Origin: Takakia lepidozioides
Lineage: Eukaryota; Plantae; Bryophyta
Assembly: GCA_030704615.1 (NCBI GenBank)
Contig: CM060734.1
Span: 50,344,001 to 50,408,000 of the forward strand
Direction of reading: 5' to 3'
Length of the DNA stretch: 64,000 nt
A program made the translations under genes and the position numbers. How positions within the stretch are numbered: position 1 is the stretch's first letter; the number at the start of each line of letters is the position of its first letter. Positions 1,864-58,206 of the stretch are shown in pieces. The notes beneath the pieces are model-generated. The model was not told where the DNA came from. It ran no database searches and saw only the letters and a program-made list of their open reading frames with translations.

Positions 1864-1964
1864 CTGCACACATCAGCCACACTTGGACTACAGTTCAACA
1901 GTCGCCTCAAAACAAGAATGTCGGCAGAATTATCTTATGCATAGACTGGTCATAGGGGTAGAGA

Positions 1965-3165: not shown

Positions 3166-3184
3166 CTGGTCATAGGGGTAGAGA

Positions 3185-9130: not shown

Positions 9131-9149
9131 TTCATGAGGCATCATTATG

Positions 9150-9545
9150 CAGTGACTGACTGACTCCTTCGGAACTATAGTTTTGGGTGTGAAAATCTTT
9201 GGCTTCCAGTGGACTAATACGTTTACTTCTTCCAGCTTGGAGAATCTCTTGGTGTTGATAGTTATTGGGCAGCTTGTTGAGAGCCCCACTTTCTTGTATC
9301 CTGCTTTCTCTCAGCCCCACTGTCTATTCCGCGGAACTCAATCTCTCTTTGAAGTCGTCCACTATGAGGATCAGAAATGCTTGGCAGCTTACCTGCACGA
9401 GGCCTTCACCCTTAGACAATCCTCGAGCAGTAGTTTTTTGGCTCTGGTGTTGTTCCTCTCTCATTTGTTTTCCATTTTGTCCCATAAGCTCTTTGAGCTT
9501 TCTGCGGACGTTATAAAGTACCATTTCATTGCATTTCATTTCTCT
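9150..9545 (+). mobile_element. Second 3' fragment of non-LTR family B
   Basis: EDQKCLAAYLHEAFTLRQ followed by the same hairpin and (CATTT)n tail. Confidence 0.7.
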
Positions 9546-10401
9546 GGCTCTGCTGCTTGCACAAGACCTTTAACTAAATAAGCATCTATCTAGAAAACAG
9601 ATGTGGAACCTCACATGTTACAATTGCCTCCAGCACTGGAAGCTCAAATGAATGGACATCAGGCTCACCTGTACAAATGTCTCAATTGCATGGAAGGCTC
9701 GTTCAATACTTTCCGAAGAAGCATTGAGGGGTAGCTGCCGGGAAGAGAGCACATGTTTTATTTGAGTGATGCACACGTCCACTGCTGCATTGGCAGCCAC
9801 TGCTTCTTCAGAACACAACTCCAGGAGAGCCTGCAAAAATACCCACAACCGTACAATTATTTCAGAATAGAAATCACACTCTCCTGCCTGCATTCATAGA
9901 TAGGCTCCTTCACCACATAAAGTGTTATTTAAGTACTCACTATGGTTAAACAGTGCAAAGAGAAAAAACTAGAAATGCAACATATCGTGCAACAAAGGCT
10001 TGCACAGCTGGGGAGCACAAAGTGCGTTCCGTCTATTGGAAGAAGTATCTGCACCCTCATGTATGATTTGGGATGCCACAACTGTACTAATTGGCTGATT
10101 CCACAAGATTGCTTGTTAGAAGCCTTGCCTCTATTCATGTCTCAATCTATCCAGCTTGAGATCATTGAGACATGTTGCTCAAGTAGCAGGGAGGCATTTG
10201 TAGAGGGTTGGGATTAAGGCTGGCAAATTCCTAGAAAAATGGTCTCATCAGAAATGCTTGCTCTCCCATGTAGATAATGCAATATTTTACAAGAAGCTAA
10301 TTGAAGTAAAATGACAAAAGACATGGAGTACAATACACTCATACTTACTGTCCAAATAATATGCAATTTGACATCTCAAAATATTCTGCACCTTAAATAG
10401 A

Positions 10402-27249: not shown

Positions 27250-27777
27250 TCAGGAAAGTTGGCCACAGTCAGCAATGACTACTGACTTCTTTGTCTTGCC
27301 ACTGCTGGAGCCGACTGCCTCGATGGCCTTCACCACATTGAACCCCTCAACTACCTGTCCGAACACTACATGCTTGCCATCCAGCCATGGGGTGGGAACA
27401 GTGCACAAGAAAAATTGTGACCCATTGGTGTTAGGGCCTGCATTGGCCATGGACAAAACTCCAGGGCCTGAATGCTTCCTCACAAAGTTTTCATCGGCAA
27501 ACTTTTCCCCATAAATCGACTCTCCTCCAGTGCCATTGCCCTTGGTGAAGTCACCTCCCTGACACATGAACTCTGGGATGACACGGTGGAATGCTGAACC
27601 CTTGAAGTGGAGAGGTTTCCCTGATTTTCCATTTCCTTTCTCTCCAGTGCAAAGAGACCGGAAATTCTCTGCAGTCCTGGGGGTTGTATCAGAGTAAAGT
27701 TCCATCGCAATTCTGCCAGCTGGATGGCCCCCAATGCCTATGTCAAAAAAGACCTTGGGGTTCAATGGGTTCGGCAT
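27250..27777 (-). CDS. Single-domain cytosolic cyclophilin (peptidyl-prolyl isomerase), intronless, 175 aa
   Basis: Intact ORF with [53 protein letters not shown] and [10 protein letters not shown]. Confidence 0.97.
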
Positions 27778-29577
27778 GTTGCTGCAACCACCACGGCTAT
27801 AGAGTCAACATGTGCTCAGGCTTATTCCACAACAGCATCCTCAAATGTCCATTCTTATACAAGGCAGAGGTAAGCAAAAGCATTGAGAAAAGAAGATCAC
27901 TCATGCGAGATCAATGCAGAGAGAGAAGTTTGTCTTATTGATCCTCAGATCAAAGCTCCAAGACATGGTTCCTTTGGCAAGAAATCTCTGAAGTCCAAGG
28001 CGATTGTTTTTTAAATGAGTTGCTAAAGTAACCTAGACTTCATGGAGACAACTTCCAAGATTTCAAATCACTAGGGGCGTTACAGGACCATGGACAAGTG
28101 GTGCCTAAACGAGTAGAAGACACCAAGCTAACAGGGACACTGTTTCCAGACCAGACCGAGCTGAAGCATCCACTTCTCTATGTGGAGTTATCCGCCAATA
28201 TCCAGGCCCATGAAGTACAAGCTTCACCTCTTGGCACACAGACATCAAAATACCCTCAGCGTCCATAACCTCTACATTGCCAACATCTTGCAGGCAAGAA
28301 CAAAAGATTTTAAAGAAAGAGGAGTATCACCGTGGTGCTGGTGTCTTTCTCAGACACGATGCCAATTGACCAATGTTTGTGATCAGGGGATAAACGTATA
28401 GGTTTGCAATGCTCTCTTTTCATCCGCAACCGTTGTAAAACAATTTAACCCTCTGATCCTTCCAACCACTCACAACCCTCCCACTAAAAATCGCAATCCT
28501 GCCATCGCCGTCACCTCGCATTTGGTATCAATCTCCCTCACACTCGGCAAACAGCACAACTCTCCTCCCTCCGCACACAAGTAGTCAAGTCAACAACCGC
28601 CTCTTGCAGACATAAACCAAGAAATCCAACAACTGAATTGCACCTGACGTGATTAAGAATGCGGCGTATCGGAAGCCAAGATGGGTCCTCCTTGCCGGTC
28701 GATGAAGTGCAAGAACGATAGCAGCAGCTTCTTTGCAGGTCGTTAGGATTGCAACAGGGGCCAAGCTGGCGTCACTGGTGCCCCAAAACACGCAAAACTG
28801 AGGTTCCAAAGCTCCTCGTTGGCTCCTCCTCGTTGGCTCTCACACAGGGATAGTTTGTCCTTTTCATAATGTTTGTGTTTTGTACAAGGCGCTTAAACAG
28901 CGCCAAATACTGAATGTTCCCATCTGTCCCCCTTTGGATTATTCTTCCCTTTACAAAGACACAGTGATGGCATCTGCTTGAAAGATGTAAGACTCGTATG
29001 GGTTATGAGAGTTTTCGTTCCTTGACATTAGCTCTGAAAAACAACCACTTTTTTCTGTAGACACAGTGATGGATCTTTCCATCTTCAGGAATAACGTTGT
29101 TTGAAGCCAGTTCGGGCCATGTTGGGGACCGTTTTATATCATTCATTCATTTGTCTCTGGAATTTGAAGCAAAGGCTGTCACATTTCTGTTGTCTTCAGC
29201 AGAATCTGTTTTCACCATCAACCTTTCTAGCGATGGAGGTTAGCAAACGCCAGCAACCATGACGTGAAAATTTCTCAGCTCGAACGTTGCAAAGGCTGGT
29301 TTTGGTCCCGTTTGGTGGGGATGAGCAGATGAGGAGCAGATGATGGGAAGGAGGCTTGGAAGAAGTCCAGCACTGGCTGAAATGCATTGCTCTTGATCTA
29401 TCATGCCCAAGTTACGTGAGGACGCTTGCAGACCATTGTAGAAGACCCCAGGGAAGGTATTGGGCCCCTGATTCCAGTTTATTGCTCGCGAACGTGGTCT
29501 GTGTGTGTAAGTACAGTATCCTCTTGTACACAGATCACATATCTTCACTAAAAGAGTAGGAATTTGCAAGCAACGGT

Positions 29578-31790
29578 CTAAGCAAAATCGAAAATTTCGA
29601 GCACAGGATCTGATGCATGGACCTTTCGGCCACCTCGAAGTGAATGATAGACCGGTCTTGAGCAACCGGATTCGGACCGCCTCGGTTTGAACATTGAGAG
29701 TTTCAATGATCGAGACTTTTGTGGCCAAGTTGACACAGAACCCTCCCCTAAGCTGGCCTCCAATGTACATATAGTCAAGTCCAGTGCAACCAGGCTGCTT
29801 GAAGGTCTCTCAGGTTCATGCTTTTCCAACTCCGAGTGCCCTGCTTGTTCCCTTCCCTCCACCATATTATCCACGATATCATCAGGATGCACTGCATAAG
29901 TTTTTTTTCTTTCCATGGTGGCTGATGACTCGTCAACTACCACATATAATCGGCGACCAGACGTTGATGAGCTTCTTCTGGCCGATCCGCTCGTTTGGGA
30001 CCTTGACCGACCGAGTCTCTTACGAGATTCAACTGTTCGACCCCTTTCAGAAATTAGAGGGTCGTGATCGGCTTTGCGCTTTTGAGGTCTGACCAAAATC
30101 TCTTTGTAGTAGCTCTCGAGCGTGAGAAGCAGCTCCACTTCGACATGGGGTGAGCTTGACGAGCTAATCGAGCCTGTTGAGTACGAACGCACCAAGCGAG
30201 CTAATCGCTTGGACCTTGTGGACTCATGCGCTGATGGCTCTCCAGTTTTCTCGCCCAGGTTCTCCATTCGATCCGATTCCTGGGTTGATGTTATTTCTGC
30301 ATCCGTCTCACCAAATATTTTCAACTGGCTGCTTGCTGAGTTCCGTAGCCTCCACCTTGAAGAACTGCAGTACTCCTCGAACGGTGCGATGGAGGTGGGT
30401 TGGATTCTTTCAATGGAACAGCTCGACTTATTATCCCCCAGGGCAGTAGTTATGGCTAAATCGCTCTCTCCACGTGACTCCATCGTATCCTCACCCTTAC
30501 CTTCATCTGTAGTATCCAATTTTGGGACTGCAAGGATGCAATTGATCACAAAGATTCGACAATCAAAACCTCACAAGTTGAGCTTTCTGAATAACATGCA
30601 CGAGCATATATGGAATTCATCGTTTTTCCAGATCAGTTGCCATGGATTTTCCTTGAAAGGATTGTCTATATAGTAGGATGTCCAGATCATTGTCTACAGG
30701 CATGTAAATTACGCTTTCTCTTCCTCAAGCGAGAAAATCAGCTGGTGTTCCCACCGAAAGGATTTTAAGGTTAAGCATGCATATCAAGCAGTTACTTGGC
30801 TTGGTTTGCGACTCACCGGTGACAAAAGAACTACGACTTGATGGGACCGTTGAGCCAGAATCGGTAGAATGGTCCTGGAAGAGCTCCTGCAACATGTGAT
30901 TCTCTTCTATTAGAGCTATCATAGTGGTGCTCTCTGATTCTGTAGGTAAGGACCTTCGTTCTGAGCTGATTCTCTCGGGCATGGAGACCGGCATCAATGC
31001 GTAAGGAACCCCAGCAGCCAGACTAATGTTTACACGGCAAAGAGGACAAGTGGAATGCGAGCGCAACCACATGTCAATACAACTGATGTGAAAAGCGTGA
31101 TTGCACTTGGGAAGTATGCGGAGGGTCTCGTGTTCTTCGAACGCACTCAAACACACCGAGCACTCGGTGTCCTCTATCAGCCCCTCACCCTCTCTGTACT
31201 GAAAATTGGGTATACGCCTTATGAAGGCTTCGTCTAAACCCACTGAAGCAGGCCATACTCGCTCTCCCATAACAACCTGTGGGTCACAGTACAAAGCAAA
31301 ATTGATGAGAAGGAAAAACAATATACATGTTTAATTTGCTTACGACTCATGCAGACTGTGAAGTTCTGTACTAACCGCCTCCAAAGATCAGAGTACAGAT
31401 TCATGAATTGTTTGAACGCACTGTTAAATTGGCTGGACAACAATTCGGAGCTGGCCAAGAGATTAGATCCAAGGGGTCTGATCATAGAGATTAGGTAATT
31501 GGAAGACATACCATGACGGAAGCACCGTCCCCAGCAGAAAAGTGAGAGCCCCATGACGAAAATAGCTGCCATCGCGTACAATACTTGGTTATAAGGCGGT
31601 AGTAGCTCACTACGAGAAAGGAGACTGCCAGCACGCCGATCACTGAAACCACTGCCGGACTGAATGAAACGTTTGTTGAGCTGGTGGTAGCATGGATGTT
31701 GCCTTGGATACTACTTTGTGGTGGAATATGAATACCGGTATACAAAGGATTGATTGTAGTGTCATAATGAATCGTTGTCAAAGGCCTCAT
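29578..31790 (-). CDS. ATL-family RING-H2 E3 ubiquitin ligase, exons 31790-31512, 31276-30817, 30527-29578 (about 562 aa)
   Basis: N-terminal transmembrane helix, GLD motif, and RING-H2 CSVCLSAF...LPKCNHAFHISCIDMWLRSHSTCPLCR. GT-AG phases are consistent (0 and 1). Confidence 0.9.
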
Positions 31791-34700
31791 CACCTCCCAA
31801 TCAACAGTTGCACCCGGCCAATAGAGAGCAGATATCACTCGAGATCAGAGAGAGAGAGCGGACTGTGTACACCAACTTCTATCGTGGATTTCCCAAGGGA
31901 GAACATGTAGTGCTCAGATCCTGGTTTACTGCGAAACGGTACTGATCAGACGGTACTCCAATCCAGAAGTTCGTCAAGTGCCAAGTTTCGCAATTGATTT
32001 CTGACGCCAGCTCCAAAACAAGAAACTGTACCTTCTGGACAAGGGTGCTGGGTCACCTAGCTGGAGTACACCAACTTACATGCCAATGGAAGTTTCTGCT
32101 AGGAGCACTCTGATGAGAGGGAGATCCGCATCATAACTCACCCGAAAAACAACAAGTTTCGAATTGTTGTGTGCAGGGCGCGTTGAGCAAGTGCACCCAC
32201 ACCAGTGTTCACATCCGAAGGTTGATTTATCGCGTGATTTTCCTTCATACTCTCTTGACCAGTTCGTAACTCACTCCGATCCACATAACCATCATTGAAA
32301 GTACACACATGTATTACAAGGAGTATGTTAGACCTGAGGCTCCAGATCTTCCTCCATGATGCTCCCTGCATTGGTGTGTCTTGCAGAGACACCGTAATTC
32401 ATGCCAGGCGGGCCAAGGCATAGCATCAAACAGGTCTGTTATATGTATGTACCCACCCCCAAGCCTGAGAAAGACGTAAAGCTACTAGGAATGGGGAGAG
32501 ACGGGGCGCTCGAGACCACCATGAAACTCGACTAAATTACATAGTTAATGTTTGAATTGAGGTATCAAGACAATCCACATTTCATTGTGGGAATACTCTC
32601 GGGAGGACACACTGTCCAGAACCAGTTCTAGTAAGGTTCGACACATCTCAAGAAAGACGGCGAGTCCAGCTAGATAGCTAGATTTGGATAGGAACAAAGA
32701 GGGCAGTGCCTGCAGCTAGATTCTCAAGGATGAGAAAGAGAGCTAGAGTCACGGCGCAGGAATAGAGGTCCAAAGGTAGACCTCTTCCTCCGGCTTTCAC
32801 GTGAACAGCTGAAACTCGACTAAAGATAGTTCAACCAGGGGGTCCGAGAAGACCAGTTACCCACACCTGGAAATAGACCCGAGCTCTCTCATTTCCTTTT
32901 CAATTTTCAATGCTGGCCATAAAGTTAAGCTCTTCATACACTTCACAATTACGACGTTAAGAAGAATGAAAGCTGCTCTTCGATCAATGTAAATCGTGCC
33001 GCCGACAGTTTACTCATAAGCCCCTCAGAAGACCATGCACTATACGAAGTGAACACTTGCTAATAAATATTAACTCAGACCTTATCTTTCCTGACGTAAT
33101 TACTCTCGAACATCTGTCATGCTCATGCTAAGTGTATATAAATTGATACCCATTAGAGAGATTACTCTTAAAAGTTCGGCAGTCTAAAGCTGTGGGATGG
33201 CTGCTGATTAGTCACACAACAAACCTTCCAAAATAGCTGTGAGACCTGATCGACACCCCATTTGTTCCTCTAAACCACAAATATACAAGTGATTCTTCCA
33301 AGTCTTGGAATCTGACTGTGAGGGGGTAGTACAGATTGTGAAGGATGCAAGAGTGCGGGAAAGGGGGCCTGGAAGCTAATCAAGCACGATCGATGGGCGG
33401 ATGCGCGAATCAGCGACACGTCGTAACGTGGGTGCATCGTTGCAGTCTTCTCCCACATCGGCGCGCCCTCTTCCTTCGCTACAAGTCCGCTCTTTGTCTG
33501 TCTTGCACGAAACAGCACCAAAGTTGGTTGAGCGAGCCAACAACAACAGCAAGACGATGCTGCCGACTGATCTGCATTCTATCGATGCAGATCCGGGCAG
33601 AAAACAGTACATGAAGAGCTTTCTGTTTAGAGCTTTGTAAATTCTCAAACAGTGACCGCACACCTAGCCAATTCCAATTCCAAGTAGATTCCAAGTAAGT
33701 AGGTAAGCATTTTATGGATGAGGATGTACCCAAGTGATCATTATTCACTACTTGAAACCCTAACTGGCACTAATGTACATGTATACATTAGCAAACCACA
33801 TTAAGCGGCCCTAGAAAACGGCCCTCAGCACATAACCCTGGGTTAACCAGGGTTGGGACTTTCTGGTAAGCTAATGTGCAGTGCGGCCGCTTGGAATCAT
33901 GTTCTTTTCTGTTAGTTAATGTTCCCCCTTAATGGTCCGACTTGAAGGTTCCATCCACATCCGTACTTTAATCCATTTATATCATCCATATTTGGCAAAT
34001 TCAAATTATTTTTTATTTGGCGAAGTTTGGCGATTTCATCCATGAAAAAACAGGGAATTTCCGATTCCTTCTCTTTTTTGGAGGTCGAAATCTGGCGAAA
34101 ATTCGCCAATAAAGAAACGCTGATCATGCCTCAGTAAAAGGAATTTTTAAGATTTTATAAAGATCCTTTAAAGATGCTTGTGCTTAGACATGATTTAGTG
34201 AGGCATAAAGAGTCCCCGGGCAGGATTTCTTAGTTAGAGAGGATGGCACCTTAGGGGGGCGGGATTTCTCCAGGAGGTGAGGATGGTGGCACCTTTCGCC
34301 GCGTACCTCCTCTTGTGAGCTATACCCGATCGAGGAAATCCCCGCCATCAAAATCGGTAATCCTTGTTGTTTCTTTAGGCAGGATGAGGCCCCTGGGAGT
34401 GGGCCTTCCTGACAGGGGCCCCGGAAAGCAGTAGCCGAGTGCCTAGGCCGCAAGTTTCAGGCACACTCCGAGGGCCTCACCCTCTCACCCTACACATAAT
34501 TGTTTGTCAAACGGCACACAGCTTGGAAACCCAACTTGAAGCCTAGCTTCCTTAAAAATGTTTTTGTTCCATGCAGTTCTAAGGCTCCATGTATCTTCAC
34601 TAGAATCCTTGGGAATCTACAACAATATTATACATCCCTTAGTCTTTTCCTCTTCTCTAAAAAAGCTGGAATCTTGTGAGCCCGCATTTGTCAACATGTC

Positions 34701-35470
34701 CTCTTCCTTTGAGGGTGAAGCCTGCATTCTTGCAATTGGGTTGTCCATTTATAGTGCATATGTGACCAGGCAAGTCTGAGGACTAATTTTACTTTGAATG
34801 AGTCAATTTGTATATTACACTTACTAGTGTGGGCTGTCAGTATGCTGTCGAGCACATCATAATATTGTACACTTGTTTTATGTTCCAGAAACACCCAATT
34901 TTCCATTTTTTATGAATTTCTAGTGACAAAAAATACTTGAAATGTCTCCCACAGGGTAGGTCCAAAAATTATAAGATGCACCCTTCAGCGGTAAAAAAAC
35001 CCGGGTGGGCGCCTTGCTGCTTAGGAGATCTCAACATGACAAACAAAACAAAACAAAACAAAACATTATGGAATACATGCAAGCTCTGCCAGATTGTAGT
35101 TACAAATTGGTTGTAAAAGGATTGACATAATCCGGAAGTTAGAATGTCAAGTAAATGGGGTTGTGGTGGGTCCAATATGCTTTTTTTGTTCCAAACAAAC
35201 AATGTTGCGTAGGTAAATAAACCCATATATGATCTCTGTCGTAGGTTCATTGAATGTAAGATGAAAGTTGTAGTTTCTCATGAATGAGTGAAGTGAGTGG
35301 TTTTTGAAGATTGATATTAAAATCTCCGATAAAAATCGTTGGACAATTTTTCGGTGCTCAATCATATAAATTTTGTGAATTTTGCATAATGTTGTGAAGA
35401 GAAAGCAAATGAGGTTTATATATTGCAATGACATACATACTTGGAAAGGCATGTTAGGATATTGTTTTAA

Positions 35471-35936
35471 CCCCTAAACGCCCGCAGGCCTCCGTGGACT
35501 TTTTACCAAAAAGCGAGCCCGGCCAGAAAAATCAGCGTAATTTTTGGAAAAAGAATGAATCTTGAAAAAGTGACCAGACAATATGAAGCCACCTACCCCT
35601 GGCAAGTCCTGCCCAATTTTGGAGCCAATCATACAACTAGTGCGAAAACCCCACCGTTGCGAGTGGCGTCCATTTTTGCAGATTTGTGCAAAAAAAAAGA
35701 GACCAAAATGAGATTTGTGGGATTTTGCATGTCGGGATGGAAAAAACTCGGCCTGCTGTACCCGAAAATGTGGTGGCCGTCCAACATGATTTAGGCAATC
35801 GGTCTCGCATGGACAATCCTGATGTAGACACACAATGCACCCACCCAAAAAAACAAAAACAGGCAAAAAATCTGCTCCTGGCAAAACTATTTGTGTATAA
35901 AAAAAGACCAATTTTGGGCCGGCGGGCGTTTAGGGG
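35471..35936. mobile_element. Second piggyBac-type non-autonomous element (466 bp)
   Basis: TTAA|CCCCTAAACGCCCGCAGGCC...GGCCGGCGGGCGTTTAGGGG|TTAA; the TIRs match at 19 of 20 bp. Confidence 0.9.
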
Positions 35937-37059
35937 TTAAGGATTATAGACAACCCTCCACCGCAACACTGTTTTTAATGTCTCCATCACATCCTCCTAC
36001 TTCTCCCCTCATCTTGTACTTATCGCTCACATCTGGTACCGCTCCCCTCTCGTACCTTACTGCACAATCCTCATGTATCAAGGACGCGACTATAAAAGTA
36101 CTACATCCTTCCGCCACTCCCTCCATTCTAGATTTTTTCTCCCTCTATTCTAGAACCTTTGCCAAATTTGGGTGGCGCATGGAGTGTATGTGGGTTGCCG
36201 ATGCATTAGCCATGCGGAGCCGCATGCAATTAGTCACCCTCATTAAGACAAAATCCTAAGACGTTTTGGCACTTTTGGTGGATTTTATTTTTTCAACGAT
36301 TGAGGTCTCGTCTGTTTTGTCGTACTTGTACTGAAGTTGTTTTTTGACATAATTTGGCTGGTACATCCTGGTTGTGGAGAGACATGTGAGAGGAAAGAGG
36401 GTTGAATGGACTAGAGTGGTTGAGAGGCCAAGAAATGGTGCAGCCATCCACAAAGTTGCGCTGCTTAATTGAGAGAGAAAGCCGCTCGATTAATGTGGGG
36501 GCAGACTTTGATATGACAATCACCACTCATGTCAATGTTCTCTGCACCACCATGGCATGTCACCATGCATATCTACCCAGACTCATTTCTCTAGGAGCCT
36601 TCAACTACATGAGTGTGCCCATTCAGGCTTCGAAATGCAAGGTTGGGACTCTTTACCATCAAGTTCTGCATGGAGAATAGCACTAACATTCGTGTGGAAC
36701 TAGTTTGCACCCAATCCATCAGCCAAGGCATCACATCTAAGGTAATGAATGAGAAGGCGACCGTGGGGGAGATTCGCCTCATGGATTTGCTTTGAAAACA
36801 TTCAGGTAACCTCCAGCACGACCATGGGGAATCCTAAGGAAGTCACTCGGCATGAATTTCAAACCATGTACAATAAAACATAGGGTCCAACAAATTCTTA
36901 AGAAATAAAAATTCTAAAATATTTAATTTTAACAAAGGGTGGTAATATTATGAAAATTATATTTATAAAAAACATATGGATACTTATTTGCCTTTGTGTT
37001 ACAATTTAAAGAAAAACAATAGAAAAAAATGGGGGGTCAAGGCACCCCATTGACCTCAT

Positions 37060-37358
37060 GAACAAGTCACCAGTAAGCAAGAAGAAGACTACTACTGCGG
37101 GGCCAACCACCATGGTCTAACTGAATTGGTTTACTAAGGCCCGGGGGAATCTTAAGCTCAAATATGATGGGTACTAATTCTAAATGGGTAGATGTAGATA
37201 CCATTATTTCTACTGTCACTTTAACTTATCAGCCAGAGAACAACTTGGATGAGTTAGATAGTTGTCGTGCAGCTAAGCATCGTGCCACAACATACATCGT
37301 TATCCACCATACATTCTAAGCACACAATCCTAGAAAGCTATGCCACAATCGCCCCCCT
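37060..37358 (-). repeat. Putative polypurine tract (37358-37348) and start of the 3' LTR (TG at 37347); distal LTR end uncertain
   Basis: AGGGGGGCGAT|TGTGGCA lies downstream of pol. No matching 5' LTR was found. Confidence 0.5.
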
Positions 37359-37603
37359 AGCTGGTGATTAGGTCCCTCTAACACCGGATAGCTGACAAGT
37401 ATCCATCTCAATAAGATCATCGTTTGGTCTTCAATTGCACAAGTCCCAACACCTGAAGTCGATAGATCAAGAGGTCGGGTGCAAACGTAGCCCCATCGTT
37501 AGTCGCCTTCATGCAATCCATGATCTTCAATTGAGTATCCATGGCATTGAAGCCTCACTAGCTAGATCACTTGTCCGCCTCACCATTGTCATGCGCACTA
37601 CCT

Positions 37604-37750
37604 CTATCCAAGGCATCGTGGACACAACCATTCTCCGATAGGAACCTCCTCAAGTAGCGGTGTCAAGCATCCCATGTGCCACCCCCTTGAGCATTTGTCA
37701 CACACCAACATGGTGGCGGCACTACCAACATGCCCACATAGCATGCAACG
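37604..37750 (-). pseudogene. PHD finger at the integrase C-terminus
   Basis: CMLC-x9-VCDKCSRGWHMGCLTPLLEEVPIGEWLCPRC, a C4HC3 pattern with the conserved W. Confidence 0.92.
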
Positions 37751-40700
37751 CAATCGTGCAGGTACCACTGCAAGGTTGGGATCTATCCTCCCATCCACAT
37801 GTGGAAGTGACATGGCGCACAATTGCGCACATGGTCCTTCCATACCATGCCATCTCGACCCTCTAGAATCAGCACTCCTGAAGATAACACCTCCCGGACC
37901 CTTAGAATCACACGTCCTGCTGTGACATCCAAAGTCGTAGGCGTTGTCTGCTGCAGATACACATAGTCCCCAGGGTGGAAACGCCGAACACATGGCCGAT
38001 ATCCCCCTCCACGTAAAGTGGCGTACCTCAATGTGTCTCGGTGTTGGGCAATAGCAAGGTTCTCAAAAGCCTTAGGCATGACTCTCTTGAACAACTCTGC
38101 CCGCTAGGCACATGCTTGTGTCCACACATCCGGATCATCAAGGTTGAGGACTACTGCAGTCTCCCTGCGAATAGATGCAGGCAAATCTGGCTCTCGGCCG
38201 AAGAGAAGAAAGTAAGGTGAGAAGGAGGCAAGTGAAGCTTATTTGCTGAACCTATAGCCCATAGCTAGCCAAGGCAGTTGAAGGTCCCAATCTCCTAGGT
38301 GTCCCTTCTGCAAACCGTACTTGCGCAAACCTCTCTTGACTGTCTACACAACTCTCTCCGCCAAGCCATCAGCCTCGGGATGATCCCGAGAAGTAGTGCG
38401 GTGATCTATCAAGGCTTGCTCACACAAAGCCTGAAACTCCCCCAAGAATTCTCTCCCCTGGTCCGTGAGTACCTCGGCTGGAGCACCAAAATGACTAAGC
38501 ACTCGATCTAAGAATGCATACGCAGCCCCCTCACTTGCCTTGTCAGGCAATGCCACCAGTTCAATCCATTTGGAGAAGTGTTCCACCATCACCAGCACAT
38601 ACTTATTATGGCGAATCGTCAGTGGCAATGGGTCTGCGAAGTCAAGACTCCAACGATAGCCCAAACCCATAATGGGTAAAGGATGCAATTGTGGAGTAGG
38701 GGCGTTGAATGAAGCCCGCACTCTATCACACACCATACACCTTGCCACTAACTGTTGCACATCCGTGTGCATGCCCCGCCACCAATACTGCCCTTGCAAC
38801 AAATTATGAGTGCGCCGCACCCCAAAATGTCATAACTCCTCATGGGCATGGCGTACCAAATGCGCTCGTTGTGTTGGATGAGGCACAATCCTCACTTGTC
38901 CATCCTCCCATACTCGGAGTAGGTGAGTCCCCTCCCACTTGAACCTCTTGGCTCATTGTAGGATCCGATCACTTTCCTTAGCAGTCACATTGGCTGCTGT
39001 CTCTCTAGTACGAAGGTAGGCCAACACTGTTGCATCTTCATGCACATCCTTAGTACCACCAAGCTCCTCATTGATCTCCGGATTGTCATGCACACCATCT
39101 ACATGACCAATGCTATGGGATGGACCAGGTTGAGCTCCCATTGTTAGGATGCACAAAAAGGCAGATGCATGCCATCATGGCACCATCTCTTCATCCGTCT
39201 CACCATGCCACCGAGCTCCAGTATCATCATGCTCGCTCGTGCATGGATTACGACTCAATCCATCTACATCCCGATTGACAATACCGGCTTGATGCACCAC
39301 CTGAAAGTCGTATTTTTGAAGCATAAGTGCCCACCGTGCAAGCTTCCATGTAAGCTTGTTTGACTCCATCAACCACTTCAATGGTTGGTGATTTGTGACA
39401 AAGGTGAAGAGATTGCCATAGAGGTAGCATATGAAATGTGTCACTGTCCATACCGCAGCTAGACACTCCCCTTCATATGAGCTATACTTCACCTCGGCAT
39501 CATTGTTCGAGCGGCTGGCATATGTCACTACGAACTTTTTTCCCTCGTCATCCACATGTGTGAGCACTGCTCCAATTCCCAGCATACTCCAATCCGTATG
39601 TAGCTGGAAAGGCCGCCCCCGAATAGGCCGCCTCAGAATAGGTGCAGAAGTCAATCAAGCCTTGAGTTCCTCAAAGGCTTTCTCCTGTTCCTCTTCCCAC
39701 TGCCACTCCTGACCCACCTTGATCAACTTGGTAAAAGCCTTTGCAATGCTACTAAATCCCTTGACAAACCGTCGATAGTAGTTTGCCAATCCCATGAAAG
39801 CACGAACTCTGCTCACATCCATGGGACGTGGAATGCATGCAATGGCCTCCACTTTTGTCTGTTGAACACCCAATCCTCCAGGGTATATCATGTGGCCCAG
39901 ATACTCAATCTGATTGTGGAAGAACTTGCACTTTCCGGTCAACCCGTGCACTCTCAAGCACTCAAAACACCACCTGAAGGTATCTCTCATGCTCCTGAAC
40001 CGTAGCACTAAAGACGATGATGTTATCAATGTAGCACCGGGCAAAGTCTAGCCCCGCGAGAATCCTATCCATGACCCTCTGAAACTCTGCAAGAGCATTC
40101 TTCAATCCAAACGGTAAGAACCGCCATTGGTACAAGCAATCCTTCCCATGTTGGTCAATCCCCCAGAATGTCGTCTTTTGTTTGTCAGCCTCTTTGATTG
40201 ACAACTGGTGGTAACCGGATCGCAAGTCCAATGTGCTAAACACATTTGCATGCCCAATGGCATCAAAGATCTCCTCTGGAGTTGGCATGGCATATTTATT
40301 GTACTTAGTCTGATTCATAGGACAATAGTTCCCACACATCCTTCTTTCTGTCCAATTGCCATAGATATCCTTCTTAGCTGGCATCACCATTGCTGAGGCA
40401 TACTCCCCGCCTGATAACTCCACCAATCCAGCTTCGAACAACTCCATAGTCCGTGACTGGATCAATGACCTCTCCATGTCACTATACCGGTAGGGCCTTC
40501 GAAAGATTGGCGTGTCACTTGTCAAATCAATACGAATCTCCTGACCCTTCAAACTCCCCAAATCCTTGAAACCGAAGGCAAAGCAATTTCTATAAGCCCT
40601 TAGAAATCGCTGGATCCTCCGTCTCTCTCCTCCGGTGAATGTAGATCCAACATCTGGTTCCCAATTGTCCTTAGTGACTACAACCTTGGGTACACCAGGC

Positions 40701-41109
40701 TTGGAGGTAGGAGACGAATCATTTGGTTGTTAGATAGCAACCTCTTGGGCCTTGTCCACCCAATCTGACTGTGGCGTAGCCTCCACTTGCTCCGCCATAG
40801 CCACCTTGAGAACATCCTCTGAGCAAGAAACATTCTCAACCTCTTCAAAAACATTGGCCACCTTGGCCTCTAGCTGATCCTCAGTGTATGGCTCTCCCCA
40901 CTCCTCACATTGCTGCTTGAGAGATCCAATGACTTTCTTTTTCCGCATCTCATCCCACATCTGCCATGGGTGTTTGCACCCCATAATCCTATACTCGCCC
41001 CCACTCACTGCCTCCACCGTCCCGGTTGGCAGAGATGGTGCAATATCCAATGGAAGTGCAGAAGTAGCCACCAATGCTTGCAATCTCCGTTGCTCAGCCA
41101 TGCACAAGC

Positions 41110-42055
41110 CAATGACCCATGTCAAGCAATTGAGATCCATTGCCTAACCCAACACCTGGCGTCGTGATGCCTCTGACAGAGCTGGCACAGCTGTAGTGCC
41201 CGTGGCAAACCCCATTGCCCGTTCTCGCTCATCCGCATTGGACTCCACCAATTGTTGTAGCACACCGTCCCAAATCAACCCAGGACTATTGTCTCTAAAA
41301 GCATGAGACGAGGGAGAGCTCATGAGCGTAGGCAAGGCTGCACGTGGCTGCCCCACTCAATTTACCACTGCTAGAGGTGGACGGTCATCATGTCGCACCC
41401 TCTGTGGTTGCCTCCATTGGTCTAAAATGCCCTCAACCATGAGATTGGGTGGCCGTTGAATGGAATCATATGCTCTCTTGAGCAACTTTGGTGGTGCAAG
41501 ATTGGTCCACCACAATCGAGGTCGATGCGCGCGTGATCCCACCGCTGCTGCATCCAATAGCACTGCCGATTCAATCCAAGACCGCACTTGATGCACACTG
41601 GCCATAACCCTGGCCCGAGAGTCCCCCATAAGAGGAACATTCTCCAAGATATAGGCTAGAGGTTGCACTTGCCTCATCTGCAAGTCACGCAATACTCTCA
41701 ACATCTCCCAAAACAAATGCGATCGTGCATCATGCAAGCCATTCTCATGACATGCGAGAGAGTGTCCTTGGCAAGGTCATCCAGCTATCACCAAGTCAAT
41801 GGCACCATGCCGGTCCAAATCATCCGCCCCCAGCATGGTAATGTCTACTGGCAAGGCCTTTTGATACCCTTGAATTGCTGAGAGAGGCAGCAACTCAGGG
41901 TACTAGTGTGTGAGCAAGACAACGTGGCGCATAGAAATACGCCGAGTTATCTCATCCTTCTCCATATACCAGTACTTTTGTACTTTAATCCCAGCTTGCA
42001 ACAGTCCTGCAAGCCCAGTGCTCATGCCTCCAAACAGGTCTAGCAAACAAATCCC
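41110..42055 (-). pseudogene. C5 cytosine DNA methyltransferase domain (DNMT3-like) inside pol
   Basis: Motifs in canonical order: I LLDLFGGMSTG, II YMEKD, IV DLVIAG*PCQG, VI YILENV, VIII DAAAVGSRAHRPRLWWTNL, IX ERERAMGF, X RRQVLG*AMD. Confidence 0.92.
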
Positions 42056-44049
42056 TGAGTCAGGTGGTTGCCAGGTAATGGGCACTGTGTCCAAAGGAGC
42101 TAACTGAGGAGGTCCAGGTGATGTCACTGAACTCCCCTCACTCACCAATGGATAGGCCTCTTGCCATGCTTGGTGCACACACTCGTCTGCTATTCGATGC
42201 AAATTCCCAACTGTACCCCACAGTGGAATATGAATAGGCACATGAGGAAGCAAATCAGCCTTGTATGCCAATTGTTTGTCCTCATCAGGTGGTGGCCTAT
42301 CATCTGCATGGCTATTGCCCTCCAAGAGCTCACCACCCCAAGCCACCACCCCTGAGAATGTAGCCAATGTAGGCATGATGTTCCTATGATCCACCGCTAC
42401 ATTCCCAATAAACCGCACTGGGAGCAATGTACGTCGACCATCCCCTGACTGCCATTCCGGCCTATAGGATGTCATTTCCTCCCAAAAGTCCAAAGTAAAG
42501 CCCATCGGGTATAACACAGCCCCACCAACAAGCACATCATAAGACATCGCGTCCGTAACAATGGCTTTAGCTCTCATGACTGAGCCGTCCGTAGGATGAT
42601 CCGGCTGCAATCGAATGAAGAGCTCATGGCGTGTAATCCCTCGTGTCTTCCCTGAACCGCCCAAAGATGTTTGAATTTGGAAAGGGCAAGGCTCCAAATC
42701 CGCCTCTGTAAGGCCCAAGCCTGCAATTGCTGCTCTTCCCAACATCAATGGCTGTGCTCCTGAGTCCAACAAGACTCGCAGTGACTTACACCTCCTCCCG
42801 GATGGGCCACCCAACTGAAACACACCATCCTGATTGTCCACCAGGACTACCCCAGGAGTCACCATATTGCGCTCAATGGTTGGCCTAGCTGACAACTTCT
42901 GCAACCTTGCAGCTGCCGCTTGCCATGGCGCAACTGTGGTTGTCTTCACCCTTGAATCTAGGGCATTCATGCATTGCATCTTATCTGCTATCCCCGCAGA
43001 TAGTGCCGATGCATCACCACTCTCACATAGTACAGCAGCCAGTCTAAACACTGCAGCTAGCCGCATCCCCGACATTGCAATTGTCGTGGCAGAAAACAAT
43101 GGAGCTTGGCAAATTGCCGTAGCCGCCCCCAACAATGTACTGGCTGCACCTTGCTTTGCAGCACCACCCACTAGCATATCCCGAGCCACACTAACTCTCC
43201 CCACTGGCACTCGTGGCTCTACTTCTGACACACTTGGGCGAGCGGGTACCATCGATGGCGTAGTTGGCACTGTCTCAGCCAATGTGAAAGACTGTGGAAG
43301 CCTTGTCTGACGACTTGCTTCCCCCCTTTGTGGATCAAAATCCACATCTGCTCCTCTTGGCTCAGGAGCACGCATTGCTGCTCGAGTGACAGCAGCTGCA
43401 GAGTCCACATGCAATGGTTTTGCAAGTGCGACTCCACACATGAAGTCCATACCAATCTGGTCTTCCCTAGGCATAGGAGGTTGTGCAGGTGGGGCTTGAA
43501 CCTCAGGCCTTGGAGCTGGCGCAACATGAGAAGTGGCCATGGTAGCAAGACGTTGCTCTAGCTGGGCAAGCCTATCTATCATGCCTTGGTCATGACCTTG
43601 ACCGTGATCTTGTGCTCCTTGGTTTTGGTTACGACCTCCACCACGACCTTTGCCTCATCTACCTCTCTGGACTACATTGCCTCGTCCTCGGCCACCATTG
43701 TTCCCTTGGAACTAGCCTGGCCGTAGCTCAGGATGCAAGTCATAACAATGGGCCTCTTCATGCCCATACTTGCCACAATGCCCACATTGTAGTTGTGTAG
43801 GCTGTGCCTGTGCTAGCCCTTTGCCTCTTTCCGGGCAATCTCTCTTAACATGGGGTCCTCCACAATCCCAACATATCACACCCGACTGTTGTTGGCCTGA
43901 AAATGAACGAAGTTACCTTTGCAATTGAGATCCTCTCGGCCCTTCCCTAGGCTTCGCCTGAGCCCCCTTGTAGGAGCCCTACTTCGTTGTGTCTCCTTAC
44001 CAAACCCCACCATGACCACTCGCTCTTCCACCATGGAACAGGAGCTGGG

Positions 44050-44320
44050 AAGTCCACCCAAGCTCCTGTTGCAGCACCAACACCCGTGCCTGCCTTTAAC
44101 CCAGTTGTGGAGTTCTTCGAGGAGTTAAGGAGAAACTACCATGGGATAAAGACGGAAAAATTGCGGAGCTTGCAAGAGTTCCAGCGCAAGCCTACTGAGA
44201 GTTTGAGGGAGGCTTACACGCGCATGAGGCAATTGATAAATGTAACCCAAGGGGTTACGGAAACTCAAGTTGTCCAATTTTGGTATGGGATATTGGACAA
44301 GGAGCTGAGGAGAAGGGCAC
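44050..44320 (+). other. Inverted gag segment
   Basis: FFEELRRNY..LRSLQEFQRKPTESLREAYTRM..QFWYGIL is a retrotransposon gag core on the opposite strand to its flanks. Confidence 0.85.
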
Positions 44321-45609
44321 TTGACGTCCCACTGCTGCTTGCAGAAGCTGCCGGTGTAGCTGCCGGTGTCACCACTGCCCTTGTGCCTCTAGTGATGGAG
44401 ACATAGTCAGGTGACCAATACACCCGTCATTCCTCAATCTCCACCTCATGTTCCCACCTAAACTCATGGTAATCATCCATGGGCGGCCCCTCAAGGTGCT
44501 GAAACAGCCCCTTCCACGCCATAAAAGGCGTAAACAGTTGTGGATTGCGCATCTGTTGCAAATCACACCAACTTTCAAACTCTTGTATGAAGTCATCAAG
44601 CTCGATGGTGCCCACAGCTCCAGAGTACCTTCGTGGCCCCTTGGTAGCTCCATACATCTCCTCCATCGTGTCCCACAACAATGGCACGGAAATGGCTTGC
44701 ACCCTCGGCAAGAATCCTCCTAACTCTGAGTCTGAACCTTCCTCAGAAGACACTGAAGGTGAAGGTGGCCTAAACCGCACACCTCGTCTTGTATACCCAC
44801 TAGTATCGCTGGTGCTCGTACCGGCACTCTCCTCAGCAACTGGTAGCACCTCCGTGATGAAAACTCACAACCACACCTGTTGTAAACCTGTCTCTAATCC
44901 CCATTTCCACAAGGTAACCGGGTAGAGGTTCGTAACATAAACCTGCACCTGCATCCACCGCAAGCACTCATATGGTTTGCTGGTCATCAACCCAGCCTCA
45001 CCATAAGAGAAACAATGATGGTCTGATTGGTCATCACCCCAACCTCACCACTGACAGCACGCTCTAGGATTGGCCGGTGATCAAATCCGGACCAACCTCC
45101 TATGAAAACAAGCGCCCACACAAAGCTAACATGGCGCACAGTCAAGCATGCAGGTGTGGAGGGGATCCAAACACAAGAAAATCAATACAGCAACTCCCCC
45201 ACACCAAAAACACTCCACAATGTCGCTCCTGCAATGACACCCCAGCCCAAACCCGGACTGACTCTTGCCTCCACCTATGGAAAGGTTTTGGCCTACAGAG
45301 AGGGTGGAAGACTACAAGGAAGAGAGACTAAAGCAATTCCTATCACAACATGCTTTCATCCCACTACCCTATCTCCACACTCTCTTGTTTGAACAATAGA
45401 CAAGACTATTTTTCAAGGGTCTCTCAAATAACTCTCCAGGAGCCCTCAAGAATATGTCTTTCAAACAATCTCACTAAGGCTCCCAATCCTTGCACGATGG
45501 GACTCCAAAACAGTACACCAAGGCCCCAAGCTTGCCAAAACTTAGCCCTCAAGGACCCCAATAGTCCCTCACACAAGTCGCCAAAGACTCCTCAAGCTCG
45601 CCAAATATT

Positions 45610-46010
45610 GGCCTCCAAGGACCCCAAATAGTCCTCCAAAGAACTCCAAATGGTCCTCCAAGGACCCCAAACAGTCCTCCAAGGACTCCCAATGGTCCTC
45701 CAAACAGTCCTCTAAAGACCCCCAACAGTCCTCCAAGGACTCCTAATGGTCCTCCAAACAGTCCTCCAAAGACTCCCTATGGTCCTCCAAATGGTCCTCC
45801 AAGGACTCCCAATGGTCCTCCAAACAGTCCTCCAATGACTCCCAATGGTCCTCCAAATGGTCCTCTAAGGACCCCCTACAGTCCTCCAAGGACTCCCAAG
45901 GTCCTCCAAGGGCCCCAAACAGTCCTCCAAGGACTCCAACTGGTCCCCCAAGGACCCTAAATAGTCCTCCAAGGACTCCCAATGGTCCTCCAAACAGTCC
46001 TCCAAGGACT
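45610..46010. repeat. Minisatellite of 11-bp monomers forming a 33-bp higher-order unit
   Basis: ggactcccaat-ggtcctccaaa-cagtcctccaa repeated with variants. Confidence 0.9.
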
Positions 46011-48313
46011 CTTCCTATGTCACCATGTTCTCAATGTGTTCCCAAGTTCCCAATGGGTTCCCAAAGTTCCCTAGGAATATTCCCAAGAATATACCATAGT
46101 ATTCCCCCAATATTCCCCTGGATACCCAAACTTCTAGTCCTTCGGATGCTTCCCCTCTTCGAAGTCTGATCCTGTTTTTTGGCTTGTATTGCAGATCCTG
46201 AGTCTTTGGCTTTTGAAGAGACTCGTAGAGTTTTTGTAACTTCTGCACATGGTAGAATTCGCATGCAAGGTACTTTGAAAGAAAGTAAAGCTGGTTATGT
46301 ACATGTCTTGTACGCTGACCGTGCTATGGAATGGATTTCTATCAAAAATCTGATTGCTAAAGCATTTCTTGAATTTGGACTGGTACCACATGTTCAAGCT
46401 TTGGATCTTATTGTTTTTGGTTGGAAGCATCATAATAACATAGGGATGGATCGTTACCTCCCTGCTAGAGTGTTTCAAGACTTCTCTTTTGATGAGAAGA
46501 CCTCTTTCGAGACCTCCCTCCCTCCCTCCCTCCCCAATCTGGTTTTTGACTTGCCCATGAGCTTTTGCCGAGTACATTTCTGTTAATATGGATGAACAGA
46601 GGGCATTACTCCTATTTTTGCATATCCCTAATTAGGGTTCTGGATATGCATGAGGCACATGTCATAACCAGCTAGTGTTTCTTAAATGGTTGGGGCCCTC
46701 TAATAAACACCACCACCTGCTAGTTGGCTCTTCAAAGCCATAGGAGGTGGCCCTTAATGAGCTGGGTCTCTTTCCCCTACACCTTCCTTACTTCAAGAGT
46801 ATGAATAAAGAGAAGAGCAACTCAGCAATGTTCATCTCAAAGGAGGAAGGCTACTGCAAGAGGGAAGGAGGAGACTGACTACAATGGCCTCTTCCTCAAG
46901 GAACAGTCAGGTAGAAAGACTGAGCAAACAAGTTCCTCACTACTTCATTTGCAGCTGTTTCGCTACTGCAATGTTTTGTTTGTCATTTTAGACTTCAGCT
47001 CCAATCTCCTTTGTCTCTCATGGTGGACATGGATAACAACTAGGTGATACCGTATACCTGGGATTCCACAAGGGTCACTAACCTATTGGTTTTGTGGGGT
47101 GCTTGTGATGGGACCAGGTAAGGCCTCACCTTTGCCTTGATAGCTAGGAGTGGATGGAGTCTAATGACTTCTCCCAAGCCTGTAAATGAGGGTTGGCAGT
47201 TAAACATTGAGTTTGGTAACCATTTGAAGTGTATCTATGGGCATGATTGCTGTTTTTTCTTTGCTATGATGTTCATGTCCATCCTAGCTTTGAAATACTT
47301 AATCTAGCAACTAGGACTTTGGCTTAAGTAGTATCTGAAATGATAGTCATATAGTTGGACTGTCATTGTCATCTAATGTTCTTTTAGGTGGGAAGACCTA
47401 CATGGTATTCCCCACCCACCCACCCGGACTAAAGTAAGCAAAAAAAATGAGAAATGTATGGTATGATGAGGCCTGTTTCAGGCAGATGTGGTCTTTAAAT
47501 GAATGGACTGATTTGGTATAGTCAAGCCATTTCCTGTCTTGACATGACAGCATTAACCTATATATATATATATATATATTCTAAAATCTACATGGTTGAA
47601 AGTTGAGGTATCATTGAATATGTCAAGCAAGGTAGTTTGTTGGCCCTGCCTTCCTAAGGCAACACTACGCAAAGGGTTTTGATGCTTAGCACCAATATTT
47701 GCGATTAAGCTCCAAATTAGATCGAGATAGGTGTAATTGGAATATTCTGTTTGTATTGGTAATGAATGAAATTCCTTGGATGAATAGTTCCATGCACATG
47801 TGACAGATTGTGTTGACTAGGTAGATTTATGCAGCTCGTTACAGCAGGAAAAACTGCTGAGCAATTGAGAAGGAGTGTCGAGGGTTGTATCTTGTGGCTG
47901 TATTTCTCTTCTTTATCCAATGTGCAAATTCTGGCAGAGAGTGCGTAGTAAGGACTAGGAATTTCCATTGTAAATCATAATATATAAGCTTTTCTGCAAC
48001 TTTCGAGTTTGATCAATAGTGAACAATCCTGCGAGCCATTTCAATTCACGGAGTTACCAGAGGAGTGCGTTGAGACTGTTCAAGGGTTTAAATCAAGACC
48101 TATTTAACACTTTGATCAAGATATTTGCAGTCCCTTCAAGCAAACAACTTTGGGTTTAGTGGCGGAAAATCCCTATAGATGGTTTCTGCTGTCTATAAAA
48201 TTTACACTATTTCAAAGATCTATAGGTTTGCAGATTTGGGAACATGAGGTCCAACATCCAGCAAATATCAGTTTCTGATCATATGATGCGATGATTTCCC
48301 ATGACTTATATTC

Positions 48314-49171
48314 CACTACAACAGATCGCGGTAGTTATGACTGCCAAACCGTGGTAGTCATGGCTTTCATGACTTTGACCATGACTGCACCATGTTTTTA
48401 TATGAAATTAACCTCCCGCAGTCGTTCATACGACTGTAGTCATATGAACGACTATCTAAATAGTCGTCTGTATGACTACATGGCTCCGGAATGGACGGAA
48501 GGCTGGTCAACGGCAATTGACCAGATTTAGCTCACCATTCATAGTCATTTCCATGACTACAGTGTACATGGATGAGGTTACATAGTCATGATGACTACTG
48601 GGGATTTTGTAATTTGGTGTGTATAATACAATTAAAAAACCATATGATCGTATGAATGACTAATGGGTATATTGGTTAACAGGTAGTGAACTATAACTCT
48701 TATAGTAAAGAGGTTGCAGGTTCAAACTCCTCTAAGTACAATCAAATGGATAAGATGGCCTTAGGGTTAGTAGACAAGCTAGGGATAGCACGTGGTACCC
48801 TAAATGGACTGCCACGTGGTTTTTTCATTACTATAAAATGCATTATGTGACGTGGCACAATGCGGTGCGACACGACGTTTGATATTTTTTTTATTTTTTC
48901 AATTTTTTCAATTTAATTTAATTTAATTTAATTGTTTTTAATCAATTGCGCCTCGCCACGTGGCGCGGGAGCGGCGGCTGCAGTATGGTATAAATGACTG
49001 CTGTGAGAGATATCACTTGGTTCATATGACTGTAGTCATCCGGACCGTATCATCCTGTACTCATTGTATTGACTTGGTTTGCACGACTTACAGTCATAGA
49101 AGTCATATGTACCGTTTATAACTGCAGAATAGTCATATATACAGTCATAAATACCGCGATCTGTTGTAGTA
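48314..49171. mobile_element. Non-autonomous CACTA (En/Spm) element, 858 bp
   Basis: CACTACAACAGATCGCGGTAGTTATGACTG ... CAGTCATAAATACCGCGATCTGTTGTAGTA, a 30-bp TIR with 2 mismatches. It has a 3-bp TSD TTC and many ATGACT/AGTCAT subterminal repeats. Confidence 0.93.
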
Positions 49172-57605: not shown

Positions 57606-58154
57606 CTAGAAATCAGCATCCGTCTGGAACACACGCTCATTCCAATCAAGAACTAGCGCGTCCGCGAAATTGCCCTTTGAAATAAGTGTTCCAAGTGCTG
57701 CCGTGGGAGTGCTGATTCCACCGCCGTCTCTAGATTTCAGCATTTTCCACAGCGCCTGTAACTCACCACATCTTATCTTCCATATTTCAGCTTCCTTCGC
57801 TTCTATCTCTTGGATATTCTCCTCACATAACTCCTGCAGACCAGACAGACAAAAGAATTCCGCCTCTTCTTTGACGGCCCTCAGCAAACTGCTTTCCGTA
57901 AGCCAGATCGTTCCATTGCGAAGATAATTGAGGACGTGCGAGAATCTCTGTCCGTCTCGATCAATCCAAATCACGGTGTCGCCAGAGTGGTGCCGAAGGA
58001 GTGCGGCCAGCATTGAATGCTCATCTTTACACAAAGTCTGCCGCGATGTCTCGAAGCACTGTCCACCGACGTTCAAGACTATCCTCTCTTCTCTCACATA
58101 TTTCCAGCCCTCGTGTGCTTTCCGCTTTGCAGAATGCAGCGAGCACGGATCCAT
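57606..58154 (-). CDS. BTB/POZ (KCTD/T1-type) domain protein, intronless, about 182 aa
   Basis: IVLNVGGQCFETSRQTL..SML..WIDRDGQRFSHVLNYLRNG..EEAEFFCL. The ATG at 58154 is preferred because the upstream extension is a GA microsatellite. Confidence 0.9.
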   Translation of the reverse strand: MDPCSLHSAKRKAHEGWKYVREERIVLNVGGQCFETSRQTLCKDEHSMLAALLRHHSGDTVIWIDRDGQRFSHVLNYLRNGTIWLTESSLLRAVKEEAEFFCLSGLQELCEENIQEIEAKEAEIWKIRCGELQALWKMLKSRDGGGISTPTAALGTLISKGNFADALVLDWNERVFQTDADF

Positions 58155-58172
58155 CGCTCGCTCCCTCGCATC

Positions 58173-58206
<34 letters not shown>

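Follow-up and report, generated by a model that had tools for sequence, protein, structure and literature searches.

A Ty3/Gypsy retrotransposon family of the moss Takakia lepidozioides with a DNMT3-like methyltransferase domain and a conserved stop codon ahead of its reverse transcriptase

What the cytosine methyltransferases borne by some retrotransposons do has been an open question since 2018. Part of the reason is that their known hosts are difficult to work with and that the domain from Klebsormidium produced no signal in yeast. The question is raised again by a stretch of 64,000 nucleotides (the window) of Takakia lepidozioides (GenBank assembly GCA_030704615.1, contig CM060734.1, positions 50,344,001 to 50,408,000 of the forward strand), the minus strand of which holds, at approximately 37,263-45,500, a decayed Ty3/Gypsy element of a family that is very abundant in the same organism. 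From 5′ to 3′, its domains are gag, protease, a DNMT3-like domain, reverse transcriptase (RT), RNase H, integrase and a PHD finger. A preliminary description, made from the letters alone, had placed a DNMT3-like methyltransferase between protease and RT of a Gypsy element, which the domain order and the Pfam matches bear out, and had missed the PHD finger. The amount in which such an enzyme would be made is a matter of the stop codon at 40,730-40,732, between methyltransferase and RT. This stop is a conserved feature of the family and not a product of decay, so that the enzyme ends a first open reading frame (ORF1, gag-protease-DNMT), with RT, RNase H, integrase and PHD finger behind the stop.

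By its best structural and sequence matches, the domain is an unpermuted, DNMT3-like C5 methyltransferase. Read with X at the stops, it matches Pfam DNA_methylase (PF00145), the profile proposed in the preliminary description, with an E-value of 1.2e-11 and 45.1 bits, the cut-off being 22 bits; its closest solved structures are DNMT3A (E 2.5e-14), then DNMT3C and DNMT3B, ahead of DRM2 (1e-4) and HaeIII (1.5e-4). Motifs I-X follow in the normal order in one frame and with no intron, and both the resemblance to DNMT3 and the motif order unlike that of DRM hold up as first noted. A DRM enzyme was rejected because motifs I-IV come first here, whereas in the circularly permuted DRM2 they match residues 227 onward. 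The active-site positions comprise the catalytic Cys (41,771-41,773), the motif VI Glu (41,642-41,644) and two motif VIII Arg residues (41,522-41,524 and 41,516-41,518), all of which are kept in 99-100% of 138 aligned domains. The structure model of an intact natural relative, P0001 (67% identical; pLDDT 71.5, pTM 0.79), has DNMT3A as its top structural match (E 5.3e-16, TM 0.76 by target). DUF3444, a feature of host plant DNMT3, gave no Pfam match in the domain read. The domain might, alternatively, have been kept as a DNA- or RNA-binding shield or as an RNA methyltransferase rather than for DNA methylation, in keeping with the inactivity of the Klebsormidium domain in yeast, with insertions relative to DNMT3A and with the low confidence of residues 264-303 in the P0001 model; retention of the catalytic Cys, Glu and Arg across such diverse domains makes this quite improbable.

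The stop reads TAA CAA CCA in the window, after a linker of 121 codons. Related loci with both the end of DNMT and the start of RT number 48; the linker is in frame in 35, and in all 35 the stop falls at the identical codon. At the DNA level the site is covered in 52 of 67 loci, all of a single family and with the same insertion counted more than once among them, and it is TAG in 38, TAA in 13 and GAG in one, followed by CAA (51 loci), CCC (50) and ATG (51). For siblings of the window copy, amber accounts for 91,934 out of a depth of 92,005 in run X1 (46 contigs) and for 96.1 out of 96.1 in run X5; the two remaining stop bases and the six positions behind the stop show no variant at 5%. Two runs presumed to be RNA gave no sequence over 40,670-40,800, a blank that does not bear on expression. 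A third family, that of L056, has TAG CAA CCA after 129 codons; thus the stop, CAA CC and the reading frame are kept across linkers of 81, 121 and 129 codons. At the protein level, Marchantia and Calypogeia-cluster proteins end 77-81 residues past the domain, and four further Marchantia models (1,280-1,281 residues) and two Calypogeia-cluster members of 1,319 residues end at the matching place.

How, then, would RT and integrase be made? Readthrough is the likely route, judging from the codons around the stop. UAG CAR YYA is described as the type I readthrough motif (PMC3542737), and the window family and L056 share the amber stop and CAR YYA with type I (tobamovirus) readthrough (PMC3542737, PMC2754532); the main locus family differs in having CAA CCC, and readthrough here is a prediction. 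The RNA fold of the 90 nt behind the stop, with z-scores from mononucleotide shuffles of -1.0 in the window and -1.5 to -2.5 in three loci, gives too weak a signal to call a stimulatory structure. RT-integrase may instead be a separate ORF reached by re-initiation, internal entry or splicing, an alternative that touches on expression alone and can hold alongside the other readings. It would draw on the ATG found three codons past the stop in 51 of 52 main-family loci and on the Marchantia models P0003, P0006 and P0022, which join DNMT to RT with the linker skipped, although such skips may be introns placed around the stop by a gene predictor. This Met codon is absent in the window organism and in L056, which argues against a shared restart codon, and the stop, CAA CC and frame persist over linkers of different length, so that a separate ORF is held to be unlikely.

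The features of the element, by window position and strand, are as follows.

45,543-46,011, no strand: tandem array of 12-, 21- and 33-nt units on the 5′ side of the element.
44,667-45,500, minus: 5′ leader (approximate), at high family depth.
44,385-44,666, minus: N-terminal part of gag, 77% identical to Marchantia P0009 residues 1-94.
44,020-44,328, plus: middle of gag, inverted (P0009 residues 105-212; Pfam Retrotrans_gag, E 4.6e-4).
43,736-43,873, minus: two zinc knuckles (nucleocapsid), from alignment to Marchantia P0009 and P0010.
42,431-42,853, minus: aspartic protease, catalytic Asp at 42,764-42,766 (weak Pfam Asp_protease_2 match, E 0.089).
41,096-42,058, minus: DNMT3-like C5 methyltransferase domain, unpermuted, with four stops in this copy.
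40,724-40,732, minus: in-frame stop ending ORF1 (40,730-40,732) and CAA CCA, the predicted readthrough site.
39,965-40,660, minus: first part of RT, to the break at about 39,965 (Pfam RVT_1, E 7e-15).
39,310-39,615, minus: RNase H (Pfam RT_RNaseH, E 2.8e-31).
37,798-38,910, minus: integrase with zinc-binding region, DDE core and C-terminal part (rve, E 2.6e-15; Integrase_H2C2, E 5.6e-12).
37,613-37,747, minus: PHD finger, out of frame in this copy (Pfam PHD, E 2.2e-10).
37,263-37,349, minus: 'B' repeat unit at the 3′ terminus, with GACA as its last bases, likely the 3′ end of this copy.

The ORF with the protease and the start of the methyltransferase spans 41,903-43,654 of the minus strand from stop to stop (first Met at 43,582). 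A single frame takes in the zinc knuckles (about 43,873), protease and methyltransferase motifs I-X and continues into RT, where it ends at 39,965, with eight stops in 1,322 codons; a second frame holds the remaining RT, RNase H and integrase. Damage consists of stops, of frame breaks near 39,965 and 37,806, of an Asn where the RT catalytic motif should have its second Asp (40,022-40,024) and of the inverted gag piece, beside which about 55 gag codons are absent; sibling contigs join opposite strands there, without the inversion. The window copy is dead, as the preliminary description had concluded from the YIDN motif and the stops, among which, however, it had overlooked that the one ending ORF1 is shared by the family. 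The protease is 57% identical to Marchantia copies, and relatives match the Asp_protease_2 profile at E-values down to 1e-5.

With regard to class, gag, protease, RT, RNase H and a DDE integrase stand in the order expected of Ty3/Gypsy, and two complete long terminal repeats (LTRs) at the very ends, as in the standard form, were not found. A chromovirus was rejected since a PHD finger follows the integrase and the Pfam scan of the window gave no chromodomain match, and a DIRS/Ngaro element since a DDE integrase is present, whereas that class has a tyrosine recombinase and no DDE integrase. DIRS-like split direct repeats of the KnitGypsy type are found in relatives, the window copy having only the B-like end. 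Related loci are arranged as A-ORFs-B-A-B (seven with a 3′ B-A-B) or end at the first B (eleven), A being about 337 nt and B about 115 nt long, and a 5′ A is also present in four of the seven B-A-B loci. Target duplications of 4 nt around TG..CA-type ends occur, in relatives only, at all six loci with both ends; these represent five independent insertions, two have a mutated second base, and L019 and L008, with one end cut, were omitted. Troyka elements, as described (PMC12440569), have CG..CG termini and 3-nt duplications and occur in animals only, and were therefore set aside. No obvious primer site or polypurine tract was seen by eye in relatives, and the window holds no tRNA genes. Retroviral integrases trim two bases from the ends of complementary DNA (cDNA). 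In related loci, the internal B-A junction forms a near-palindrome that includes two spacer bases. This is how it should look if both cDNA ends are templated there and the integrase trims in this manner. In the window copy, the 3′ tail aligns to the B1 region of L064 with a score of 223 (shuffled maximum 153), the end of B being reached at 37,263, and family depth falls left of the bin that holds this unit. On the 5′ side, family depth in run X1 drops from 123,575 (45,214-45,747) to 3,436 (45,748-46,281), and the alignment of the leader to repeat A of related loci does not rise above shuffles.

Is the methyltransferase, then, a regular part of the family? Contig depth summed in run X1, which comes from the same organism, amounts to 90,000-600,000 over 37,204-45,747 and 111,000-143,000 over the methyltransferase, as compared with 49-67 for single-copy flanking contigs; summed depth is not copy number, and it marks a very abundant family that includes the methyltransferase domain. 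When its central part served as query, 64 relatives were obtained among 523 candidates, with Marchantia polymorpha, Calypogeia fissa and Sphagnum troendelagicum as species-named sources (best identity 60-66%). In a metagenome scan, 80 of 160 matching stretches were kept as related loci, of which 50 have the protease upstream, 59 RT downstream and 74 either one, five of the other six being short contigs; since the 80 were selected by the domain, members without it cannot show there. The domain is, on this comparison, supported as an integral, intron-free part of a Gypsy family, and neither a segment that other members lack and that has its own target duplication or introns, nor a domain failing the profile, which the preliminary description had named as outcomes that would speak against it, was found. 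Its statement that the methyltransferase belongs to pol and is no captured host gene stands as far as the Gypsy family is concerned and is not supported in its wording, since in this lineage the conserved stop parts DNMT from RT.

The wider clade is reached by a profile search that gave 568 clusters at E < 1e-30. Among the best 150 of them, 103 have protease, RT, RNase H or integrase and 47 the domain alone. The commonest layout among the 103 places the methyltransferase after RNase H and ahead of integrase, with a terminal PHD finger, and the members of it that bear a name are from the green algae Hariotina, Tetradesmus and Chromochloris. Trees built from 19 rows join the window to two Marchantia proteins both for DNMT (100/100) and for RT-RNase H (99, quick method), and each tree keeps the eight rows of the RNase H-DNMT-integrase layout together; the two trees agree. 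The preliminary description had called for such trees with charophyte retrotransposon-borne DNMTs and host DNMT3 or DRM, and the congruence was obtained with rows none of which is a host DNMT3 or DRM or comes from Klebsormidium. A viral-contig scan with P0072 gave no relative, an Atlas search only a generic methylase cluster, with Streptophyta commonest, and no protein named as from K. nitens appeared among homolog searches and cluster look-ups. The PHD finger is in frame with the integrase in 21 of 22 related loci; its best solved matches are the fingers of CHD4, ATXR5 and KMT2C/D, and it presumably lacks the aromatic cage of H3K4me3 readers. Some members depart from these layouts: the distant element P0088 has weak Dam and C5 methylase matches ahead of protease, RT and integrase and resembles dual-methylase EpiLTRs; P0087, P0331, P0334, P0345 and P0212 have an additional G-patch domain; and the coding region of L001, L013, L015, L017, L019, L028, L047, L057 and L058 is broken by an additional stretch of about 0.8-1.1 kb, which might be a single small element that inserted several times.

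These data bear on a further account of the domain, namely a retrocopy of a host DNMT3 captured once and carried neutrally, for which its DNMT3-like sequence and the modest constraint within families would speak. The position is, however, the same across liverwort and moss relatives, the trees are congruent, retroelement domains accompany so many of the best clusters, and the ratio of non-synonymous to synonymous change (dN/dS) is low between families (dN 0.30 and dS of about 2.5 for DNMT between window and loci, 11 of 37 pairs being saturated), so that neutral carriage is already largely refuted and has very little left to recommend it.

On balance, it seems probable that ORF1 provides gag, protease and DNMT at capsid level, that RT and integrase follow through a leaky stop and that the enzyme methylates the element's own new DNA. 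With DNMT in ORF1 ahead of the stop, far more methyltransferase than copying enzyme would be made, RT-integrase being a minority product of stop readthrough. The protease would free the methyltransferase inside the particle, and cDNA would be methylated before or at integration, new copies being thereby pre-marked and either self-limiting or disguised as host chromatin. The PHD finger may steer the integrase to histone H3 tails, and the internal B-A junction may template both cDNA ends, replacing tRNA priming. The idea of a packaged DNMT that methylates cDNA, put forward in the preliminary description, had already been proposed by de Mendoza et al. 2018 (PMC5890265).

Several observations weigh against this account. 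The KnitGypsy domain gave no DNA methylation in yeast, a result that its authors call inconclusive (PMC5890265). The main locus family has internal dN/dS ratios of 0.59 (DNMT), 0.65 (protease), 0.47 (RT), 0.43 (RNase H) and 0.52 (integrase), so that DNMT is less constrained than RT or RNase H. Only three of 37 DNMT segments are free of stops, a decay that inflates the within-family ratios. The depth of DNMT is about half that of RT and integrase, from which it follows that some family members may lack it, and repeat searches of the window gave no LTR pair and no target duplication for this copy. As to the stop, the main-family hexamer, with CCC in 50 of 52, is one base off the readthrough motif; the ATG behind it makes re-initiation or a spliced RNA possible there; seven divergent loci are too decayed to show the site; and the distant relatives P0072, P0081 and P0091 are single gag-protease-DNMT-RT-RNase H-integrase ORFs, which makes the stop dispensable across the clade.

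The enzyme might also act in trans in the nucleus, the bulk ORF1 product methylating older or competing elements as a control of copy number. Its place in ORF1, a product made in abundance and uncoupled from RT, and the several full-length, 1,280-residue Marchantia ORF1 models with catalytic residues would agree with this, as would the CHG ratio of the element (0.84), more depleted than that of the flanks (0.95-1.13). The CHG depletion is equally explained by host enzymes, and many algal relatives have the domain after RNase H and ahead of integrase, a position suiting action in cis on cDNA; action in trans is accordingly judged improbable, and methylation of the element's own new DNA remains the preferred reading. 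A broader proposal is made more tentatively, and may well not hold as a whole: that of a large green-lineage clade of split-repeat Gypsy elements, ranging from algae to land plants, with an active DNMT3 writer and a PHD reader, in which the leaky stop of bryophytes would pack methyltransferase at capsid stoichiometry and pre-methylate every new copy, the family being, in the present host, plentiful enough to contribute to genome methylation.

Elsewhere in the window, a long interspersed nuclear element (LINE)-type element occupies 1,946-14,935, with endonuclease and RT ORFs at 11,228-14,935 on the minus strand, an internal 141-nt tandem array and duplicated or inverted pieces (1,962-3,082 and 10,399-11,618) that are 99-100% identical. 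A short element at 35,467-35,940, like a miniature inverted-repeat transposable element, has 24-nt terminal inverted repeats, and a repeated element at 48,315-49,170, which has terminal inverted repeats of 29 nt and is deeply covered in run X1, is likely a non-autonomous CACTA-type DNA transposon. Three host genes lie on the minus strand, which we take to encode a cyclophilin (27,250-27,804), an ATL-type RING-H2 protein (29,578-31,844), the gene with a Pfam RING match, and a BTB/KCTD-like protein (57,606-58,268).

As for what is already known, the concept has been published, and the land-plant range, the conserved stop, the PHD finger and the testability in Marchantia appear to be unreported. 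No land-plant report of a Gypsy-Dnmt3 family was found in the literature searched, though supplements, figure tree labels (PMC12344493) or Repbase may hold one. Two later papers speak, in their text, of 'streptophytes' without naming a land plant, and a Marchantia tip may already be in their trees; the 2018 survey, as described, covered seven land plants, with no liverwort or Sphagnum (PMC5890265), and, according to an opinion paper of 2019, 'land plants, such as tracheophytes' do not have such elements (PMC6338049). Split repeats would hide such elements from LTR-based surveys such as REXdb, which, by its description, demanded both LTRs and flanking duplications (PMC6317226). In Marchantia polymorpha, unnamed full-length ORF1s with catalytic residues are present as Mp_4g09160, Mp_5g06330, Mp_5g06860, Mp_Vg00370 and Mp_Vg00540, which makes enzyme activity and readthrough testable in a genetic model plant, and the conserved stop predicts an unusual enzyme dosage. 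Family members are annotated there as ordinary genes, some on the male V chromosome (Mp_Vg00370, Mp_Vg00540), and could inflate counts of DNA methyltransferases.

Other methyltransferase-carrying retroelements include SymbioDIRS-Dnmt3, which is reported to methylate CG in yeast, and SymbioLINE-Dnmt (PMC5890265), as well as EpiLTRs and DAM-LTRs (bioRxiv 10.64898/2026.05.21.726589); as far as they are described, these belong to other element classes or enzyme lineages, the EpiLTR DNMT being sister to DNMT4 and accompanied by DAM and a chromodomain (bioRxiv 10.64898/2026.05.21.726589). Host plant DNMT3 (PpDNMT3a/b) shares the unpermuted DNMT3-type catalytic domain, and is described as carrying DUF3444, whereas the domain of the element is without it and lies inside a retroelement ORF (PMC6453930). 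Gypsy-7a_cRei of Chlamydomonas is likewise a green-lineage Gypsy element with a PHD finger in its polyprotein, but with no methyltransferase among the domains listed for it (PMC9940879). The closest known system is KnitGypsy-Dnmt3 of Klebsormidium nitens, compared here by description and not by sequence, which has the Gypsy domains, an intron-free, unpermuted DNMT3-related domain, DIRS-like repeats and purifying selection, no PHD finger being mentioned in the text (PMC5890265). Its DNMT reportedly shares one ORF with RT and RNase H (PMC5890265), an arrangement also found in P0072, P0081 and P0091, whereas in the window family the stop intervenes and DNMT ends ORF1; moreover, the present family is abundant and has land plants as its hosts, while K. 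nitens is credited with 33 DNA methylase genes in all. Since split repeats have also been reported for KnitGypsy-Dnmt3, the elements described here most probably represent a branch, found in land plants, of this known kind rather than a new one.

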